From positions 1-43,143 of the forward strand of contig ML002313.1 in the NCBI GenBank assembly GCA_003614675.1: 43,143 nucleotides of DNA. Reading direction: 5' to 3'. Origin of the DNA: Dimargaris cristalligena. Taxonomy: Eukaryota. Below, one piece after another: positions 11,437 to 34,120 of the stretch. The number at the start of each line of letters is the position of its first letter. The stretch's first letter is position 1. The notes beneath the pieces were generated by a model, which did not search any database, was not told where the DNA came from, and was given only the letters and a program-made list of their open reading frames with translations. Position numbers and translations under genes: made by a program.

Positions 11437-11865
11437 CTATGGCCTGCGATACAAAGCAGGGTCGGGCCGACGTGAACATGTATTAATATGATCGTTTAAG
11501 TCCGCGTGGGACTGGAACACCTCGCTGCAGTAGGGACAGTCATCATTGTGGTACTCAACGTAGTGCTCCATGACATGGTTACGCAGCAACTCTTCGTGAC
11601 AGATGGAGCAAATGATCCGAATGGAGGGCCTACGCGCCACGGGAGTTCGGAGAGTCGGCGGCGGTGGTGGTGTGATGTGGGAGGGGATGGTGGTGCTGGG
11701 AATATTGACGGAGGACGTTGACTTGGTAGGTGAGGCAGTATAAAGGTTCATCGAAGAACTCCTATCCGGACTTCGATTAGTCCCCCGTGACCAGCCAGGT
11801 CCGGCTGTTGGTCGCCGGCGATGGTGATGGCTAGGGGGCGAGGAGGTACAGTTGTATTGTTCCAT
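11437..11865 (-). CDS. Small zinc-finger protein (C2H2 + C2HC), Ser/Pro-rich N-terminus
   Basis: CSICHEELLRNHVMEHYVEYH followed by CPYCSEVFQSHADLNDHINTC; upstream TATATAAAA on the minus strand near 12170. Confidence 0.7.
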   Translation of the reverse strand: MEQYNCTSSPPSHHHRRRPTAGPGWSRGTNRSPDRSSSMNLYTASPTKSTSSVNIPSTTIPSHITPPPPPTLRTPVARRPSIRIICSICHEELLRNHVMEHYVEYHNDDCPYCSEVFQSHADLNDHINTCSRRPDPALYRRP

Positions 11866-13242: not shown

Positions 13243-13623
13243 TTAAGGCACTGGCTTATACTCACACACAATCTCATGGTAGGCCAACTCGCGCATATCG
13301 CTGTGGGACTCGGGACAATAGGCACATCTCTCCGCATGATACTTAGCATCATGTCGCTGACGCCTATAGCGGGAAAAAAACACCGCCGGACACGACAGAC
13401 AACGGTAACGTGGGTAAATGCCTCGCCGGGTCGATTTCAATTTCCTCGCCTTTGGGGAAACTGGGTGGCCATTAAGCAATGACTGACCACTACCCGGCGA
13501 GCCGACTGGCGGAATATTGCCTAGGAGGCTTTTGGAACTACCGTCGGACACCCGTTTACAAGCGGATACTGCTGCGAATTCCTCCTGATGGACTAGAGGC
13601 AGTGCAAAATCAAGTTGGGCCAT
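13243..13623 (-). CDS. Small zinc-finger protein (C2H2 + C2HC), likely paralog of 11437-11865; 126 aa starting MAQLDF
   Basis: CLSCPAVFFSRYRRQRHDAKYH followed by CAYCPESHSDMRELAYHEIVC; basic KARKLKSTRR stretch before the fingers. A TATATAAAAG box near 13820 implies the ATG at 13623 rather than the ORF-track start. Confidence 0.7.
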   Translation of the reverse strand: MAQLDFALPLVHQEEFAAVSACKRVSDGSSKSLLGNIPPVGSPGSGQSLLNGHPVSPKARKLKSTRRGIYPRYRCLSCPAVFFSRYRRQRHDAKYHAERCAYCPESHSDMRELAYHEIVCEYKPVP

Positions 13624-15726
13624 TTTTAGAACTAAGCAGCTGCAGTAGGCCAAGGTGAGTAGGAAATAGGGTAAAGAGCTATGATAAATGAAAGTCGGCC
13701 AAATAATATAATAGCGGGAAATAGGTAACTGATATATGCAATTCCAAGTAGTATAATCGAATGACAATGATGATGATAAGAATAATTGGCGAGTTACAAG
13801 GTGGCGGGAAGTATACCTTTTATATAAGCCGGGGTGGCACGCATGTGGGAAAGGGGGAACCAACATCTTCACGTTTCACTGGAACTGTGCACATTGGTGG
13901 CGGGGTTGTGCTGCGGGGATTGCCCTTGTGAGATATCGGGATTGTCCAATGTAGCCCCACCCCATCCTTCTTGGGCCATAGAACAATAGCAATGGGTCAT
14001 TGACTCCCGTATTTTTAAAACCTCATGACCGTGAATTTCCACTACTCCTTCTTCCTTTGGTTTCATCCCTAGCAGCACCTTCTGACTGTATCGTCTGGCC
14101 TTGTTTACGAAGACACTGCAATGTATGAATCCCCCCTCCCTTCCTCTATCACCTATAAACGGACGTGGCCATTGGATAATAGAACATTAAAAATGCTCTG
14201 ATTATTGATTTCAAGATTATACTCTTAGGGGCGCTGCAATAACAGGGTCCGATACTTCACATGGGCTATCCCTGACGGGGTTATCCGCGATGAACGCAAT
14301 CTATCTATCTGCCACCGCCATCACCACCTATCTCTTTGATATAACTTCAAATTCGGGGTACCTTCAGGCCTTCCATTACTTCCTTGCAACCGGGACTGCC
14401 TATTGTTCGCTGTTGTCCCCATGCACCCCATCCCAGGCTATAGGCCCTTACAGAATCACACCTAACTTGTCAACTATATCTGCATCGGGACTGGCTTAAT
14501 ACCATATAGTAACTTCTCACCTGACTAACTTAGGGATATACGCATCTTTGCAGCGCTACACTGGGCTATTCGATAAGCCGACTATATATATCGGAGTTAT
14601 AGCCTGCCGCGACATTATTTACCCTTGGCTATGATTGAATTGTTTATCATTATCAGGGTTTGGCCAGGCCGGACTGGATTAGCCAAATCTGGCCATCAAC
14701 ATGGTCAATAAGGGACTTTGGTTAGTATCTACAGTAACGCAGTTCACCTTTCCTATCCCCATGTTCCCCACCATAACCGGTGGGTGGGAATCAATGACAT
14801 GTCTAAAGGTCTGCCTACTAATCAATGCCCGCCTATCCACAATAACAATGTTTTGGCACAGTAGTCCGAATTTCCACCACTATCGAGTGAAACACCTGCA
14901 ATATTCACATACATTTGTTCACGCTAACCGAACAAGGGCAGGTAATTTTTTGACCCTAAGATTTGGTAGGAGACAATTCAATGGTGCATAGCATGTCCCT
15001 TAAAGCATCCATAATTCCATTTATCCCTTTCCAAGTCCTCATATGGTAACCAATGTCAGCCGCAAACCTTCCATTTACACTTCAAAGGCCACCCGATGCG
15101 ACCTATGTTTCAGGATTAGCCATGCCTTAAATTCCTGGTGGTCAATTCCTCTGTTTGTATCCTACCAACTTTAAAAAACCCGCCTGCATATAACCGACCC
15201 GCGATTAATTGTGTTGCCCCGAATTACACAATAGCCGCCTTACTCCTCGCATTTCCCATATCTGAGTCATGTATCCCGCTTGCCTAACCTTACGCTATGC
15301 CCTGCGGTGCTTCCACATACTCCTGCTCCTAGCGAAGTTTCTGGTTGAATAAATAAACTAGGATGGAACCAAGCCAGCAAAAAAAATAAATCGAAAAAGT
15401 AATCAGGTGGGGTAGGGCTTCCCTATTCCTAAAGCAATCGTCCTGGCTAGTATGCCATTGGCACTTTTATTATGAATCTCATACAACTGTCTAGAACTCC
15501 TGAAGGGTGCTATTGTCCGACATTCAAAGATCAAGTAAAATAGTATAAAGGGTTGATTCACGAGGTATACTCATAGATATGGGTAGTTAATTTATTAAGT
15601 TTAAGTAATTTACAAATTGGCGATTTTCAGTGGAATTCATGTTTCGATTATTCGTATCGAATGGCTGAATACTTTTGGGCCAATGTGGATTCATGTTGGA
15701 GAGGAAAAGGTGTCCCTGCTTGTCAT

Positions 15727-23123: not shown

Positions 23124-23882
23124 TCATTTAGGGCAACCATAGGAAGAACCGCCGCATATCTTCCTGATGTGCCGAATTAATGAATGACGACCGGTGAATC
23201 TAATTTGGCAGTTGGGACATCTGATGGGCTGATGGACGTTATCGTAATGTTTTTGCAGGACCTGGGAATTGGTACAGAACCTATCGCACTTGGTACAGCG
23301 ATAGGACGTCGAAATTTTATGACTTGGGTCGTGGGGGGCATTATTACCATTGTCGTCGTCGTCGTTGGTACCAGCCGGTAGCCATTTTTTACAATTCCGG
23401 CAATAGTGTCTAACCGCGCTTCTGTTCGATCGGTTTGGGGGAGAGGGCTTGTCCTGAGAGCCAACTCCACTTCCACCTCCACTTGGTACAATACCACCGC
23501 CGGTCACGGTCCGCGCTTCGTTCTCGTTGCTGTATTTGCCGTGGTAATTACCATTGCCAATAATAGTACGATCAACTCCGTCCCAGGGATAACTTGGCCC
23601 ACTGGTTCTGCTACCGTCCCGCCATGCCAAAGTGGAGCCCGCCAAGGTATACACTCCATCCGTGCCGGTGATATCTGGGCGAGTGTGATGGGGGTACGGC
23701 GCCCTTCGAGTTCGGACTGGCGAGTCGCTAGGTGTATCAATATCATTCACAATGAAATCGAGCGATATGGCTTTGTCTTCTGTTGAAGACGCCGGGGTGA
23801 ATTCGAGAGCCGGCCTACCCATTAGCCCTGGTAAACAACCCAGCAGGGCGATTCCAATCACCCAATCTATTAATATATACAT
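23124..23882 (-). CDS. Signal-peptide-bearing zinc-finger protein, copy 1 (C-terminally truncated)
   Basis: Hydrophobic N-terminus MYILIDWVIGIALLGCLPGLMG-RP; KAISLDFIVN motif; fingers CTKC..HYDNVH and CPNC..HIRKIC. The stop falls inside a third finger (CPK*). Confidence 0.75.
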   Translation of the reverse strand: MYILIDWVIGIALLGCLPGLMGRPALEFTPASSTEDKAISLDFIVNDIDTPSDSPVRTRRAPYPHHTRPDITGTDGVYTLAGSTLAWRDGSRTSGPSYPWDGVDRTIIGNGNYHGKYSNENEARTVTGGGIVPSGGGSGVGSQDKPSPPNRSNRSAVRHYCRNCKKWLPAGTNDDDDNGNNAPHDPSHKISTSYRCTKCDRFCTNSQVLQKHYDNVHQPIRCPNCQIRFTGRHSLIRHIRKICGGSSYGCPK

Positions 23883-25800: not shown

Positions 25801-26877
25801 TTAAATAGACGAAGGCTGCGCTGCTTCTTGAAACACACACGAATACATAATGTGTTTTTCCCAGAAGCCGGTGCACTGGGCTTTTAATACCTCGATGGTA
25901 TCTTGAACAGACTCAATAACAGGAATGGCACGTAAATCTAGCCGATTTCTATTGGAACCCACCTCCTTTTCCAAGGATGTACATTGGTGTCCTTCGTCGG
26001 TGGTGAAAGTCCGCATGGTAATCGTTTTAGTGGAAAAATCCCATTCGTAACCCACTAGCAAATGTCTGAAAAGCTGGGCCTTGACCAGTTGTTGGAAAAT
26101 ATCGTTCAGACGAGTCTCCCATTTTCCGGCAACCATTCGGGTCTTCGGGGGTGACTTTTTGACGCTCTTGAAATAACTTTCGAGTTCTTGGTATCTCTGA
26201 CCCTCATAATCATCCGTGGATGGATCCACCAACTGGTTTTGGAAAAGTTCCGACAAGGTAGGGCATTTCGAAAAGAAATTGACGGGTTTCTCATTAGGAT
26301 TGACCTGAAGTTTAGAAAAAATTGCTTCGATCTCCGAAACTTGACTGGCCAAGAGCGAATAGGTTAAGCTCCCGGTTTCGCCGGGGTCCTTATCATTGAC
26401 GTTCTTTCGCATAAGCATTCGTTCAGGATAAGATCCCTTCTGTCCCTCGGGGTACACAATGGAATCTAGTTCAAGGAAATCCATCTCATCGTTGAAGGTG
26501 GCTTCGGAGACTTGGCCGGGGTGATACGGACTATGCGCGACTGTGTTCATGGGGTCACGCATGGGGTTAAGCGAATCCAATGTCTGGTCTGCACCATCGG
26601 GGAAATAGGATGACTCCCACGACATTTCGAGATTATCACCATCCCCTCCGCTACTCTGGTCATTAAATTCATCGTAATCCGAGGACATGTACTCGGTTTC
26701 TTGGCCGTTCTGGAGCGATAAAGGGTCGGTGATGGACCAGGAAAGCGGCTGACGATTAGGTAAAGTCGCCTTCAGAGTGTTTCCCAATTGCTCGCCAACT
26801 GGACTGGCGTCCACGAGGTAACTAATCCCCCCAAGGCATCCCATTCCAAACAAGACCATACGCGTATTCGAAGGCAT
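25801..26877 (-). CDS. Hypothetical secreted protein (358 aa from MPSNTR), no recognised family
   Basis: Intronless 1.08-kb ORF. Signal-like MPSNTRMVLFGMGCLGGISYLVDA-SP, acidic disordered middle, predicted helical C-terminal half; TATA-like TATATAA on the minus strand near 27070. Confidence 0.7.
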   Translation of the reverse strand: MPSNTRMVLFGMGCLGGISYLVDASPVGEQLGNTLKATLPNRQPLSWSITDPLSLQNGQETEYMSSDYDEFNDQSSGGDGDNLEMSWESSYFPDGADQTLDSLNPMRDPMNTVAHSPYHPGQVSEATFNDEMDFLELDSIVYPEGQKGSYPERMLMRKNVNDKDPGETGSLTYSLLASQVSEIEAIFSKLQVNPNEKPVNFFSKCPTLSELFQNQLVDPSTDDYEGQRYQELESYFKSVKKSPPKTRMVAGKWETRLNDIFQQLVKAQLFRHLLVGYEWDFSTKTITMRTFTTDEGHQCTSLEKEVGSNRNRLDLRAIPVIESVQDTIEVLKAQCTGFWEKHIMYSCVFQEAAQPSSI

Positions 26878-29027: not shown

Positions 29028-30515
29028 TTAAATATCATCCATCTCAGGACATCTGTGCATTAGTCACTGACATCTAGAACTAAAAGTATGTGCACAGTAC
29101 TGGCATAGATCAACAATATTTGACTTTGTCACCCAGGTTAACCACTCTTAGTCCATCAAGAGTCCCAGGGATAGGTTTCTAATGGTAGGTGGGGCTTAGG
29201 CTTAGCCAAGTGGCTACTAGAATTAGGGAGGGATCAGTACTAACCAATAAAGAATGAGTGCAGGCTAATGCAAGGGACATGCAGTAGGAACACTTACTGG
29301 CTAATATAATAGGTAAGCATATAAGGAGTTTATTGAGGTAAACTATGGGGGTAAGAAATAAGCTAAGGAACTGAACCAGTCCTAGAGGGGCCTTGTTATT
29401 TATATGCAGGGACCACTCATAATGAGGGGTCCCTAAGGGAATGGAATGACTAAGGTAGAGGTGAGGGTCAGAGTCTCAACCAGTTGGGCTTGCTTTCAGA
29501 AGACTTTCACTGAGAGAGGAGGGTCATTGGATCAGCCAGTGGAGTATGGTGTGAGAAGCATTGGGACCCGGTTATAGTGGGTTATATAGTTGGGGGAGGG
29601 GTAATATGGCACTATAAGGCAATAGGATGGCGTAATCAGTGTTCCATATTTAGGAAGGATTAGGTAGGCTGACAGACTTGATTCCACATCCAAATTGGTG
29701 TACATGGTTATCTATCTTTCTTATGCTCTCCTTTCTGCAATCCAGATAATCATATGTGGGTGTAATACATGGTTTCAATTTGCGTGCTTTTAGATGGGCT
29801 GCTTGGGTGAATTGCTTGAGGCAGTTAGGGCAATTAGAGGGACCTCAGCACATCAACTTAGCATGTTTGCAAAGTGTGTGGTGACTGGCCAGTACACATT
29901 GGCACTTGGGACAACTGATTGGCTGATGCATGTAATTGTCATTTTCTTTAGGGACTGGGGATAGACATATTGAAAAAAATACTTGGGGCAGGGGATGGGC
30001 TTCTGACCTTTATGGCTCTGGAAGTAGGGGGTGCTGCCATTAATTCTGGAAATTACCTGTTCCTTGAACTTCTGGTAACAGTATTTAACCACCCTACCAC
30101 TGCTTAGCATTGGGGTAGCAGGGCTGTCTAATGTGGCTGTTTGACTTCCACCTGGCACATTACAGTTGACTGTGACCCATGATGCTTCATTATCATCATG
30201 GCTATCATCACTGTAGTTGCCATTGGTATCATCATCGACTTCATCCAAGCCATTATGTGACAAAGAGGAGTCCATGGCAGTATCCATTTTATCAGTGTCA
30301 GTGATATCCAGGCTATAATTGTGGGGAGATTGGGCCATGTTTGGTTTGACTGATGAGTCACTAGATGCAGCAGGGGCATTCACAATGAAATTAAGTGACA
30401 TGGGTTTGGCTTTTACTGAGGACACTAAGGTGGGTTCGGGAATGGGTCTACCTACTAACCCCTGAAAACTACCCAATATGGTGATTCCAACTGCCCAATA
30501 TATTGGCCTATACAT
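29028..30515 (-). pseudogene. Signal-peptide zinc-finger protein, copy 2: pseudogene (frameshift, two in-frame stops, solo-LTR insertion)
   Basis: Colinear with copy 3: MYRPIYWAVGITILGSFQGLVG-RP...KPMSLNFIVN. A frameshift near 29943 leads to HQPISCPKCQ...HAKLMC*GPSNCPNCLKQFTQAAHLK...FGCGIKS[LTR]NIVDLCQYCAHTFSSRCQ*LMHRCPEMDDI*. TGA stops are at 29847-29845 and 29066-29064. Confidence 0.88.
29127..29674 (-). mobile_element. Solo LTR of an LTR retrotransposon (548 bp)
   Basis: Termini TGTCA...TGACA; exact 5-bp target-site duplication GACTT at 29122-29126 and 29675-29679; TATAAATA (~29400) then AATAAA (~29330) on the minus strand. Removing it restores the host reading frame. Confidence 0.9.
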
Positions 30516-31729
30516 CAAAGCTGTTGATTGTAAAGAAGCGAATGTGGGGAGGGGTATGGTGGTAATATAAAAATACCAATTGGTTAGTTGGGTGCAGAAA
30601 ATATACCATAAAGTTTACAGAGCTGGTAGGTGGGAGAAGATCACAGATATTAACCTCAATAACATTGAAAATGGCTTGTGGGTAAGTGGTGAAAATGTTA
30701 AAGTAAAAATAAATGACTTTGGGGTAATGCAACTTTATAGGGTAGCTGTATGGCTATAAAAATGAACTGTATCCAGGAAAATAGGACCAGCTCATAACCA
30801 GCAACATACCATTGTGTGTCTATTTTCATGTTTTGCTTAGTACATTTTCGAATAGTTACCCATCAATAAGTGTATCTTTGCAATGATGCTTAGATATGGG
30901 GATAATTGGGCTCTCTATCTACAGTTAGTGGACCAAAGGTATACTTTTGTGTTATCTATGGCGACTTCCCATACAACACAGCTGCATATCAAATGGTTCT
31001 AAGTGGCCTAGAATCTCAACCATGGTCACGCTACAAGGGCATTGAGTGAGGGCTTTGATGATACAGCCTTTAGACTGCTGATAAATGTGAGAATGAAAAC
31101 ACGAACAATGAAATCGAACTACTAATGCTATTTGTTGAATGGTGTTAATAGTATCCAATCAATGTTTAGACCTCCAATAGTTTGTCCTTGAGTATAGCCC
31201 TAGCAAGCCCCCTGTTCATGCCATTTGTACTAATAGTCAATGCATTTCCCATTTTCTGCTATCCCAGTATGGCTCAAGTATACATAATGTGAACTCTCCC
31301 CCTTCTCTCCACCCCCCCTTTGTATGGCAATGTATTATATTGGTAATACCCCACCCATTGTGACCCCTGCAAGGCATTACAAAATATATTATTTTCTGTT
31401 TTTTTGTTTTTTTCATAAAGCACCCACTTTCCATGCAGAGACTTGACTAACATGCCAAAGGGTGGTTCCATTAAATCAAAATGTCACTAGTTTTAATATG
31501 TAATATTTACCTCTCATCTAGTGGGTTTTCCACTCTACAGCCTGGTTGAACCTCCCTCATACTCAATCCCCTATATAGGCTACACATGGGCTCTAGTGCC
31601 CTAGAGTGGAACTAATTTAACCTAACAAGTATTACAGTTCTTTGCCACTGGGTATTTTTAAGGTGACATTAAATTACTCAGACAAGGTATCTCTGCCTCC
31701 CACTCAAAACTTACAGCTAACCACTTCGA

Positions 31730-32977
31730 GTTTGGAATACCAGATGGCACTCCACCTTCGACATGTGAGGCTTGGAGAGCTGCAAAACAGCTTTGGCAAC
31801 ATTCTTAGGCTGCTTCATAGCCACCATTAAGGATTCCAAGTTGATGGGTTTGGGGATGATTGATGATACATATTGGTTAGTTTCGGTTGTTCTGGAACTT
31901 GTCGTGGACACTGTTTTGAATTGTAGAGAATGAGGAAATATAATAGCCAAAGTATTGAAAAACACTAGCGATAATGATAGTGATTGATTGAAAGCAGTGA
32001 TAGTGTACTACCTGGGAGGTCCGGCCTATTGCCAGTGGCCTTTGGGTTTCATGAGGAGGCAGGAGCCTCCTTATCAGCATGGCCTGAAGTCACGGTGGCC
32101 AGCTCCCTGGTGGCAGAAGACAGGAGGTTTATGGAGTTGGATGAGACAGGGGCAGAGTTGGGCATTGTCATGTTGGGGGCACAGAGGGGTGGGTGATTAG
32201 TAAACCAGATGGGGGTTAGGGGGGATAAATGAGGAGTATTGAAGTTTATTGAGAAATAATAGCACAATGGAATTGGTAATTAATAATAAATAAAAAAGTC
32301 ACTGTCAAGTTCAAGGAATATTAGAAATAAGTTTGAAAATTCAGAGTGGGTAATGATTCTCCTCAAACAAGCAGGAATTTGCTGGTTACTTATGTAACCA
32401 TCCCATGGGCCTTAGGGGCTGCTGGATACAAGGATAGGGACATAGAGAAAAAAGTCAAGAATGGAATGAGATAGAATGACAGGGAATCCATCAAAAAATA
32501 GGCCAGACTTTTAGGTGCAAGGAAGAATGGCAGGCTTTTTAATGCAAACCATGAGTATAAAGAAATGAATAATATTTTGTTGGTTTTTTGTGGGTAAATG
32601 ATGGGAATGGTACCACCATTGCATACCATGGCATATTCCACCCTCTGACAGTGAGGACTGACTGTCCATAGTCCGGGGACAAGTGCCAATCTCTGGATGG
32701 CACTACAATAGCATTGAAAATATGAGCTTCAATGAGTGGAAGGCTGCTAAGCTCCCTTGGTGATGATTCAAATGCCCTTTATATGCATAATTAGATACTG
32801 TAGCAATGTCAATTTCAACACAACAGGTGCTACAAATGGAGTGGAAGTAAAGCTATGATAAACGATTTCACTCGAGTTAAATCAAAGATAAAGGTAAAGT
32901 AAAAATAGAACTGACAAATGTGCCATGGGCAGGGTGTAATATCAACTGTTAGCAATCAACCATAGCATGCCGGACAG
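31730..32977. mobile_element. Possible degenerate ~1.25-kb insertion (absent from the paralogous unit)
   Basis: Alignment with 28830-28870 breaks at ~31725 and resumes at ~32985. The flanks are CACTTCGA (31722-31729) and CACTTCAA (32978-32985), a possible 8-bp TSD with one CG>CA change. No clear TIR or transposase. Confidence 0.4.
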
Positions 32978-33163: not shown

Positions 33164-34120
33164 TTAAATATTGTCCATCTTAGGACAAATGTGCGTGGGA
33201 ATCTGGCATTTAGAATTGAAGGTCTGTGTACAGTGTTGGCATGGTTCGATAGTACCCGATTTGTTATTACGTCCGAGTAGGTGGATTCGGAGGTGTGAAG
33301 CGGATGCTTTCTCCTTGCCACAACCCACACAATCATGCGTGGGTGTACTGCATGGTCTCGTGCGATGGGCTTGTAAATGCCTCGCCAGAGTGAATGGTTT
33401 GGAGCAGTCGGGGCATTTAAGGGAACCCCCGCATTCCCTCTTTGCGTGGCGGTAAAATGACCGGTTCCCGGTGAGTCTAATCTGACACTTGGGGCAACTA
33501 ACGACCCGATGGACGTAGTCATTATGTCTTTGCAGGGCCTGGGGACGGACATAGACCACTGGGCACTTGGCACACGGATGGGGTTTCAGAACTAAATGAC
33601 TTGGGTTGTGGGCGGCATCGTCGTCGGTACTAACGAATAGCCATTTCTTACTAGTCCAGCAATAGCATTTAGCCATGCTTCGGTTGGATTGGTTTGAGCT
33701 GGAGGGCTTGTCCAGGGATTCAGCTTCACCATCACTTGGTACAGCATCGTTGACCATAGTCCTCGCTTCGCCATCGCCGTCGCAATAGTCGCCACTGTAG
33801 CTACCGCCATCAGTATTGCCGTCGGCCTCATTCCCGGCATCACTTGACCCGGAGGCTGCGCTGCCGTCCCTCCCTGATAAAGAAGTATCCGTTTCGACTG
33901 TACCAGTGATATCTTGGCCAGTGATGTGACTATATGGAATCCATCTTGTTATGACTGACGAGCTGCGAGGTGCACGATAATTATTCACAATAAAATTGAG
34001 CGACATGGGTTTAGATCTTTTCATGGGCATCGGGACGGACACGCGGCCAGCCCTGGCCACAAGCCCCTGTAAACACCCCAGCAGGGCGATTCCAACCGCC
34101 CAATAGGTTGATATATACAT
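33164..34120 (-). CDS. Signal-peptide-bearing multi-zinc-finger protein, copy 3 (intact, 318 aa)
   Basis: MYISTYWAVGIALLGCLQGLVA-R; KPMSLNFIVN; fingers CAKC..HNDYVH, CPKC..HAKREC, CPDC..HRTRPC, CVGC..HLRIH and CQHC..HIC. Confidence 0.82.
   Translation of the reverse strand: MYISTYWAVGIALLGCLQGLVARAGRVSVPMPMKRSKPMSLNFIVNNYRAPRSSSVITRWIPYSHITGQDITGTVETDTSLSGRDGSAASGSSDAGNEADGNTDGGSYSGDYCDGDGEARTMVNDAVPSDGEAESLDKPSSSNQSNRSMAKCYCWTSKKWLFVSTDDDAAHNPSHLVLKPHPCAKCPVVYVRPQALQRHNDYVHRVVSCPKCQIRLTGNRSFYRHAKRECGGSLKCPDCSKPFTLARHLQAHRTRPCSTPTHDCVGCGKEKASASHLRIHLLGRNNKSGTIEPCQHCTQTFNSKCQIPTHICPKMDNI

Follow-up and report, generated by a model that had tools for sequence, protein, structure and literature searches.

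A conserved motif behind the predicted signal peptide of a zinc-finger family in Dimargaris cristalligena as a candidate Tup1-docking motif

Introduction

The RXLR and LFLAK motifs of oomycetes are short conserved delivery motifs that occupy a fixed place behind the signal peptide. To our knowledge, the molecular control of a living fungal host by haustorial mycoparasites is almost unknown. In the accessible text of the source, MoHTR1 and MoHTR2 of Magnaporthe oryzae are described as secreted C2H2 proteins that enter rice nuclei and repress genes (PMC7672089). The effectors HaRxL21, Ustilago Nkd1, Tip6 and Jsi1 carry EAR motifs and bind TOPLESS, according to the available part of a second source (PMC12886408). 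Several statements of Copley, taken from the accessible part of that paper, define the motifs bound by WD40 corepressors (PMC4943189). The eh1 motif is given as FS[VI]xx[IL][LM], and a Tyr/Leu pair of the Tup pocket is argued to exclude its first Phe. The MATalpha2 motif IxIxxLL binds the WD40 domain of Tup1 and requires Ile4, Leu9 and Leu10; motifs that lack the first Phe are noted to be poorly specified, and Cyc8 is raised as a specificity factor. Burglin and Affolter agree with Copley on the MATalpha2/Tup motif, as far as the available text shows (PMC4901127).

Dimargaris cristalligena is a haustorial mycoparasite. Dimargaritales parasitise Mucoromycota and Chaetomium by means of an appressorium and a biotrophic haustorium (PMC9866270, accessible part). 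A search of mainly open literature, with PMC9866270 and PMC13188720 covered by their available text, found no prior report of the gene family or architecture described here.

Architecture of the gene family

The window is the whole stretch of DNA that was analysed, 43,143 nucleotides of contig ML002313.1 (assembly GCA_003614675.1). It holds three copies of a zinc-finger gene family, here called family 1, as minus-strand open reading frames (ORFs) starting at 23882, 30515 and 34120. An earlier note on this DNA had pointed to a motif at residues 37-46, and it is found at those residues in all three copies. The features are as follows.

33164..34120, minus strand: intact copy, ORF of 318 amino acids with a signal-peptide-like N-terminus, motif, disordered linker and finger array (PF00096, E 8e-9)
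34055..34120, minus strand: hydrophobic signal-peptide-like helix, residues 1-22, coded and constrained (helix predicted over 3-20)
33983..34012, minus strand: motif KPMSLNFIVN of the intact copy, residues 37-46 (conserved core 39-46 at 34006-33983)
33671..33982, minus strand: acidic Ser/Gly-rich linker, residues 47-150, predicted disordered (17 D/E and 7 K/R in 104 residues)
33596..33670, minus strand: degenerate finger 0, from the alignment (YCxxCKKWL...HxPxH in the sister copies; the second Cys is Ser in the intact copy)
33188..33574, minus strand: array of five fingers of C2H2/C2HC type, net basic and lacking TGEKP linkers (Pfam zf-C2H2, AlphaFold2)
30378..30407 (30407-30378), minus strand: motif KPMSLNFIVN of copy B (3 synonymous and 0 non-synonymous differences from the intact copy)
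29853..30515, minus strand: broken copy B, ORF of 220 amino acids (finger 1 frameshifted near 29950, further stops beyond it, remains of fingers as far as about 29031)
29126..29636, no strand assigned: repeat of high copy number that breaks into copy B at its 3' end (contig depth sums to 2e4-7e4 here and to about 1e2 in the flanks; loose ends at 29125-29129)
23745..23774 (23774-23745), minus strand: motif KAISLDFIVN of copy A (Ile at 39; the contigs of run X5, from a second study, differ at 23749, which gives V45A)
23124..23882, minus strand: truncated copy A, ORF of 252 amino acids (stop in finger 3, second stop downstream)

In each copy the hydrophobic helix is followed by a short basic spacer and the motif, and these in turn by an acidic linker of low complexity and the C2H2/C2HC array; residues 23-46 contain five K/R and no D/E. 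With an alignment of 14 rows as input, AlphaFold2 predicts the fingers with high confidence and residues 19-148 with pLDDT below 50. The motif lies within this predicted disordered stretch and therefore behaves as a short linear motif. Matches in the PDB by sequence (best E 5e-11) and by fold (best 1.5e-4) are generic multi-finger proteins, mostly bound to DNA. DNA binding by the family-1 array is predicted and likely, but less sure than for the second family described below because TGEKP linkers are missing and three of the fingers end in Cys.

Signal peptides were predicted by a hydropathy rule together with coding constraint, not by SignalP. The first start codon, ATG1, is conserved in eight of the nine family-1 loci found in the genome, and in the remaining one it stands at codon 3. 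A 2-nt deletion in one broken copy is the only indel between ATG1 and the motif; the DNA upstream has many non-triplet indels. Residues 3-22 have a pN/pS of 0.38, and the hydrophobicity of the N-terminus is preserved even in the distant C670 copy. By these measures the stretch upstream of the motif is coding. The context of ATG1 is weak, with a pyrimidine at -3 in all the window copies, and that of Met39 is no better.

The window copies are 36-46% identical to one another, and two of the three (A and B) are broken; the stop in copy A shows no difference in run X5. Over the stretch that holds the intact copy, run X5 has four differences and no gaps in 1685 bases. A second high-copy repeat is indicated by contig depth at about 32050-32620, and both repeats lie on the 3' side of a family gene; a search of the two (29126-29636 and about 32050-32620) for terminal inverted repeats found none. 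Window positions 29636-32031 diverge from run X5 by 3.7-4.3%, compared with 0.2-0.4% in the flanks, and there is an indel where copy B is broken; this block around copy B is either a divergent haplotype or a paralogous block. Between copies A and B, a 358-residue ORF (25801-26877, minus strand) opens with a signal-like stretch, matches no Pfam family and lacks the motif; it is a candidate unrelated secreted protein. Two small minus-strand ORFs at 11437-11865 and 13243-13866 each encode two C2H2/C2HC fingers, and neither has an evident signal peptide.

Genome searches gave nine family-1 loci, namely the three window copies and those on contigs C137, C1446, C18, C599, C1646 and C670. Only the 34120 copy and C670 are intact and the other seven loci are broken, C18 by a one-base deletion inside the motif. 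To judge from the reading frames, only the 34120 copy in the window could act in the way proposed below, and most copies are decaying. A profile search of 1.84 billion representatives gave seven hits, of which five were public models of these same loci and two were unrelated tandem-repeat proteins, so that it revealed no relative outside D. cristalligena. A word-index homologue search with the 318-residue protein scored none of 1256 candidates, and the ESM Atlas returned generic C2H2 clusters for the whole protein and no usable hit for residues 23-75. The public models P0121, P0122, P0124, P0125 and P0128 contain additional short introns or different first exons, by which either the signal peptide or the fingers are lost (P0121 lacks the signal peptide and P0122 the fingers). 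The architecture may have been overlooked because public models split or shorten these genes. Two public models give the C670 N-terminus identically.

Conservation of the motif

The motif is real: nine complete instances occur in eight loci, C599 carrying it twice in tandem, so the loss in further family members that would have spoken against the earlier note was not seen. Its core follows the spacing phi-x-phi-x-x-phi-phi-N, and among the aligned copies residues 39-46 are the best-conserved window of eight residues behind the signal region. Column-permutation p values for these residues are 0.038 with the three window copies, 0.003 with five copies and 0.00014 with seven, and are descriptive only because the copies are related. 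Over five copies pN/pS is 0.20 in residues 39-46, compared with 0.92 in residues 23-38 and 0.70 in residues 47-74, and the constraint therefore acts on the protein.

The earlier description of a position-invariant motif at 37-46 holds for the core, whose register is kept in five further loci, but not for Lys37, which is Asn in C1446 and C599 and Asp in C670. The conserved core was set to 39-46 for this reason. The fixed position extends even to C670, which is 17-23% identical to other copies in alignments and reads MAVSFLVH at exactly 39-46. It reflects the absence of indels from the stretch that joins ATG1 to the motif and is thus not specific to the motif. The DIT(G/D)T sequence noted earlier stands at residue 70 in the three window copies; as a family motif it was rejected, its exact form being found in four of nine loci only. 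A KR pair before the motif was likewise rejected as a general processing site, being present in two of nine loci only.

Distribution among zinc-finger proteins

A genome-wide scan with the motif pattern gave 27 matches, compared with 11 in a reversed control. Six matches fall in zinc-finger genes, namely five family copies and the C6 locus, and every coding match is a zinc-finger gene; the remaining 21 are in frames no longer than 68 codons and were left unclassed. A second pattern gave 90 matches against 65 in its control and so mostly chance hits; 71 of the 90 were read, four more are known loci of family 2, and 15 were left out.

The ORFs of at least 150 residues that were fetched comprise 21 with a signal-like start and fingers, 43 with fingers only, 12 with a signal-like start only and 137 with neither; among the 21, some of the signal-like starts may be wrong calls. 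A motif expression searched in residues 21-63 matched 12 of 21, 1 of 43, 1 of 12 and 2 of 137 of these classes respectively, the first count being circular as the expression was tuned on the finger families. Nine of the 21 secreted-type finger ORFs have no such motif, and two of the 43 other finger ORFs have one in their first 63 residues. Among the 12 signal-only ORFs, five resemble the N-terminal halves of disrupted finger genes, a further two are doubtful, and five are plausible secreted proteins. The motif occurs in none of these five, a control set that is small because the random background was limited to 200 kb.

A non-circular score was built from the nine family-1 instances alone and applied against a background of 673 windows. 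Seven of 11 family-2 N-termini exceed the 95th percentile of the background, all at residue 28-29, and the other four score at background level. The sequence MSIHFLLN of C6 scores above all 673 windows, and MDIHTLLN of C73, at residue 1, exceeds the 95th percentile. A family-2 locus found after scoring, C253, reads NPMSITNLLN. Families 1 and 2 align in their fingers only; by profile match their N-termini do not align. There are 17 matches to the family-2 N-terminus in the genome, several of them broken, and all are finger loci or broken remains, with no finger seen at C933.

Family 2 itself combines a signal peptide, an L-N-x-L-L-N-like motif at residues 28-35, an acidic region, a GSGSGS linker and two canonical C2H2 fingers. 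Its members are L052, L097, L106 (two genes), L110, L115, L116, L118, L129, L177, L246 and L247 (contigs C546, C588, C259, C332, C253, C1239, C7, C116 and C933 of G000). A third group (L033, L034, L047, L050, L058 and L017, on C1735, C127, C1481, C14, C474 and C1266) has a signal peptide, 4-9 canonical fingers, an N-terminus related to that of family 2 and acidic aromatic motifs, which look like activation helices. Finger arrays like those of family 1, with an extra Cys in the last finger, lie at L018, L019, L021, L023, L025, L028 and L029 (C338, C1047, C967, C13, C687, C467 and C386), most of them behind unrelated signal-like N-termini without the motif. The 53-residue ORF of C6 (L132:1366-1524, minus strand) has the motif at residue 1, one C2H2 finger, no signal peptide and a TATA-like box about 150 bases upstream, and looks like a minimal repressor or a remnant. 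Locus L062 (C73) holds two tandem, near-identical four-finger genes that each start with MDIHTLLN; when fungal orthologues were sought, multi-finger proteins dominated the hits, and nearly all the named ones were from animals.

The motif accompanies zinc fingers with or without a signal peptide, as would be expected of a co-regulator motif more than of a delivery tag. The earlier note had proposed distribution as the means of telling these two apart. With zinc-finger genes as the only coding hits, finger proteins without a signal peptide among the carriers and none of the five secreted non-finger proteins, the outcome leans towards a corepressor motif, and delivery is only weakened. Overall, the distribution speaks more for a corepressor motif of the Tup1 type (MATalpha2/eh1-like) than for a delivery signal of the RXLR type.

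Comparison with eh1 and Tup1-type motifs

The eh1-like resemblance proposed in the earlier note is borne out in spacing and fails in the defining residues. The hydrophobic spacing phi-x-phi-x-x-phi-phi, which is that of MATalpha2 IxIxxLL, is present in all nine instances, but none has the first Phe or Tyr of metazoan eh1 and none has the strict fungal core [VI]xx[IL][LM], which the look-alikes C6, C73 and C253 do have. The motif was classed neither as eh1 nor as a strict Tup1 motif because these defining features were tested and missed. It lies outside the folded domains of a transcription-factor-type protein and is conserved against its flanks.

A pattern search located a Tup1 orthologue in the D. 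cristalligena genome at C240 (Tup_N, E 3e-20), and in the region searched its identity to a protein recorded for D. cristalligena is 100%. The pocket Tyr and Leu are invariant in 48 of 48 fungal Tup1 rows, Mucorales included, and a Tup-type partner with Tup_N and the Tyr/Leu pair is thus present in the lineages of both parasite and host.

Alternative explanations

The motif could be an amphipathic docking helix for another host co-regulator, such as Cyc8 TPR, Sin3 PAH, Mediator or another coactivator, on proteins that would still be secreted transcription effectors and may activate or use another partner. Helices of the phi-x-x-phi-phi type are generic, all nine instances miss the strict Tup consensus, and the motifs of family 2 and the third group are acidic or aromatic; the possible role of Cyc8 as specificity factor fits as well (PMC4943189, accessible part). 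Set against this are the basic stretch that precedes the family-1 motif and the strict Tup-type consensus of its closest look-alikes, C6, C73 and C253, so we regard this explanation as unlikely. The motif might instead serve host delivery or sorting in a subset of effectors, in the manner of RXLR or LFLAK. Its fixed place, counted from the predicted cleavage site (17-24 residues on in family 1, about 7 in family 2), and its presence in two families whose N-termini do not align point this way. A delivery role is distinctly unlikely in view of the restriction to zinc fingers among coding hits, the 17 family-2 N-terminal matches described above, the plausible secreted non-finger proteins that lack the motif (a small set) and the proteins without a signal peptide that open with it. 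MAP-kinase docking (D) motifs follow the pattern [RK]Pxx L x phi. Residues 37-43 fit it in the 34120, 30515, C137 and C18 copies, and K-P-x-x-L-x-F would then steer the protein to a host MAPK. This is hardly probable, since Lys37 and Pro38 vary (Ala38 in copy A, Asn37 in C1446 and C599, Asp37-Arg38 in C670) and the conserved Ile44-Val45-Asn46 fall outside the pattern.

Two further explanations concern the gene rather than the binding partner. If the proteins began at Met39, they would be ordinary intracellular repressors, and the hydrophobic stretch would be an in-frame leader or serve an alternative start only. A methionine at 39 in seven of nine instances, the C6 and C73 proteins that open with the motif, the weak context of ATG1 and the use of this start by P0125 are compatible with such a start. 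It is very unlikely, however, when the near-universal ATG1, the almost indel-free stretch behind it, the constraint on residues 3-22, the hydrophobic N-terminus of C670 and the context of Met39, which is no better, are considered. A decaying expansion with no present host role, in which the motif would be a relic or have a part in folding or dimerisation, would explain why seven of nine loci are broken (C18 within the motif), why copy A carries V45A in run X5 and why the family was seen in a single species. We consider this highly improbable given two intact loci, the four differences that separate the 34120 stretch from run X5, the identical C670 N-terminus in two public models and the clear past constraint on the motif.

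Proposed role

We give about an even chance to the reading that family 1 encodes secreted transcription-repressor effectors that borrow the Tup1 of the host. These proteins may be repressors delivered into the host fungus because secreted-type finger proteins carry a motif with the shape of a Tup1 motif. The signal peptide would be removed from the secreted zinc-finger carrier, which would cross the haustorial interface into the host fungus, and its basic finger array would bind host promoters (or chromatin proteins). Residues 39-46, as a short amphipathic MATalpha2/eh1-like linear motif, would dock on the WD40 propeller of Tup1, recruit host Tup1-Cyc8 and so switch host genes off; we infer each of these steps, from secretion to repression. 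The constraint on 39-46 relative to its flanks, its disordered context, the MATalpha2 spacing in nine of nine instances with a first Phe in none, the scores of C6 and of seven family-2 N-termini, the strict consensus in C253, the tandem double motif of C599 and the Tup1 orthologue with its invariant pocket argue for this role. The biotrophic, haustorial habit of Dimargaritales on Mucoromycota (PMC9866270) and the MoHTR1/2 (PMC7672089) and EAR-TOPLESS precedents (PMC12886408), each in the accessible part of its source, are consistent with it. Several observations argue the other way, namely the strict core found in none of nine instances, the less certain DNA binding with generic PDB matches, the intactness of only two of nine loci, the lack of relatives beyond the species among 1.84 billion representatives and the pyrimidine at -3 of ATG1 in the window copies. 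In addition, nine of 21 secreted-type finger ORFs lack the motif and only two of 43 other finger ORFs have it, and the motifs of family 2, four of 11 at background level, are often acidic and could be activation helices.

A wider proposal, which we put somewhat below an even chance, is that D. cristalligena has turned a large part of its C2H2 repertoire, about 21 of the 64 long finger ORFs examined and from several families, into secreted modular transcription factors that plug into host co-regulators, family 1 and part of family 2 by means of a Tup1-binding motif. They would be a fungus-versus-fungus counterpart of TAL effectors, made of ordinary eukaryotic parts and with fast turnover. If the Tup1 reading is right, it names a concrete effector class, with Tup1 as the host target, and a three-residue mutation test that is feasible in yeast. 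It would also add natural, repeated instances of the fungal Tup1-binding motif, which is poorly defined.

Comparison with known systems

Family 1 resembles the oomycete RXLR and LFLAK motifs in the fixed position shortly after the signal peptide. There is no sequence likeness, and the motif here was seen in zinc-finger proteins only, some of them non-secreted. The MATalpha2 motif and the fungal consensus [VI]xx[IL][LM] likewise lack a first Phe, have the same hydrophobic spacing, lie outside folded domains and are conserved relative to their flanks. Family 1 differs in Leu/Val at position 3 and Val/Ile at position 7, which break the strict consensus, in Phe at position 5, and in the place of the motif behind a signal peptide; Tup1 binding here is putative. 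MoHTR1/2 also come from a fungus with a biotrophic phase and are secreted C2H2 proteins, and family 1 shares the C2H2 finger and a signal peptide judged by hydropathy and coding constraint. The likeness is drawn from these described features, and no MoHTR protein appeared in the results of the word-index and profile searches. MoHTR1/2 have a plant host and a single finger, whereas family 1 has a fungal host, 5-6 fingers, a candidate motif and an expanded, decaying family. The accessible text on MoHTR1/2 reports them as without intrinsic repressor activity and names no corepressor motif (PMC7672089). The EAR effectors likewise use a short parasite motif for a host corepressor of the Groucho/Tup1 family, an engagement that is only proposed for family 1; they act in plant hosts and, in the available part of the source, are not described as zinc-finger DNA binders (PMC12886408). 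EAR motifs bind the N-terminal domain of TOPLESS and not the WD40 pore (PMC4943189, accessible part). Relative to these systems, the new features are that the host is a fungus, that the proposed DNA-binding effector itself carries the candidate WD40-type motif and that several families have expanded.
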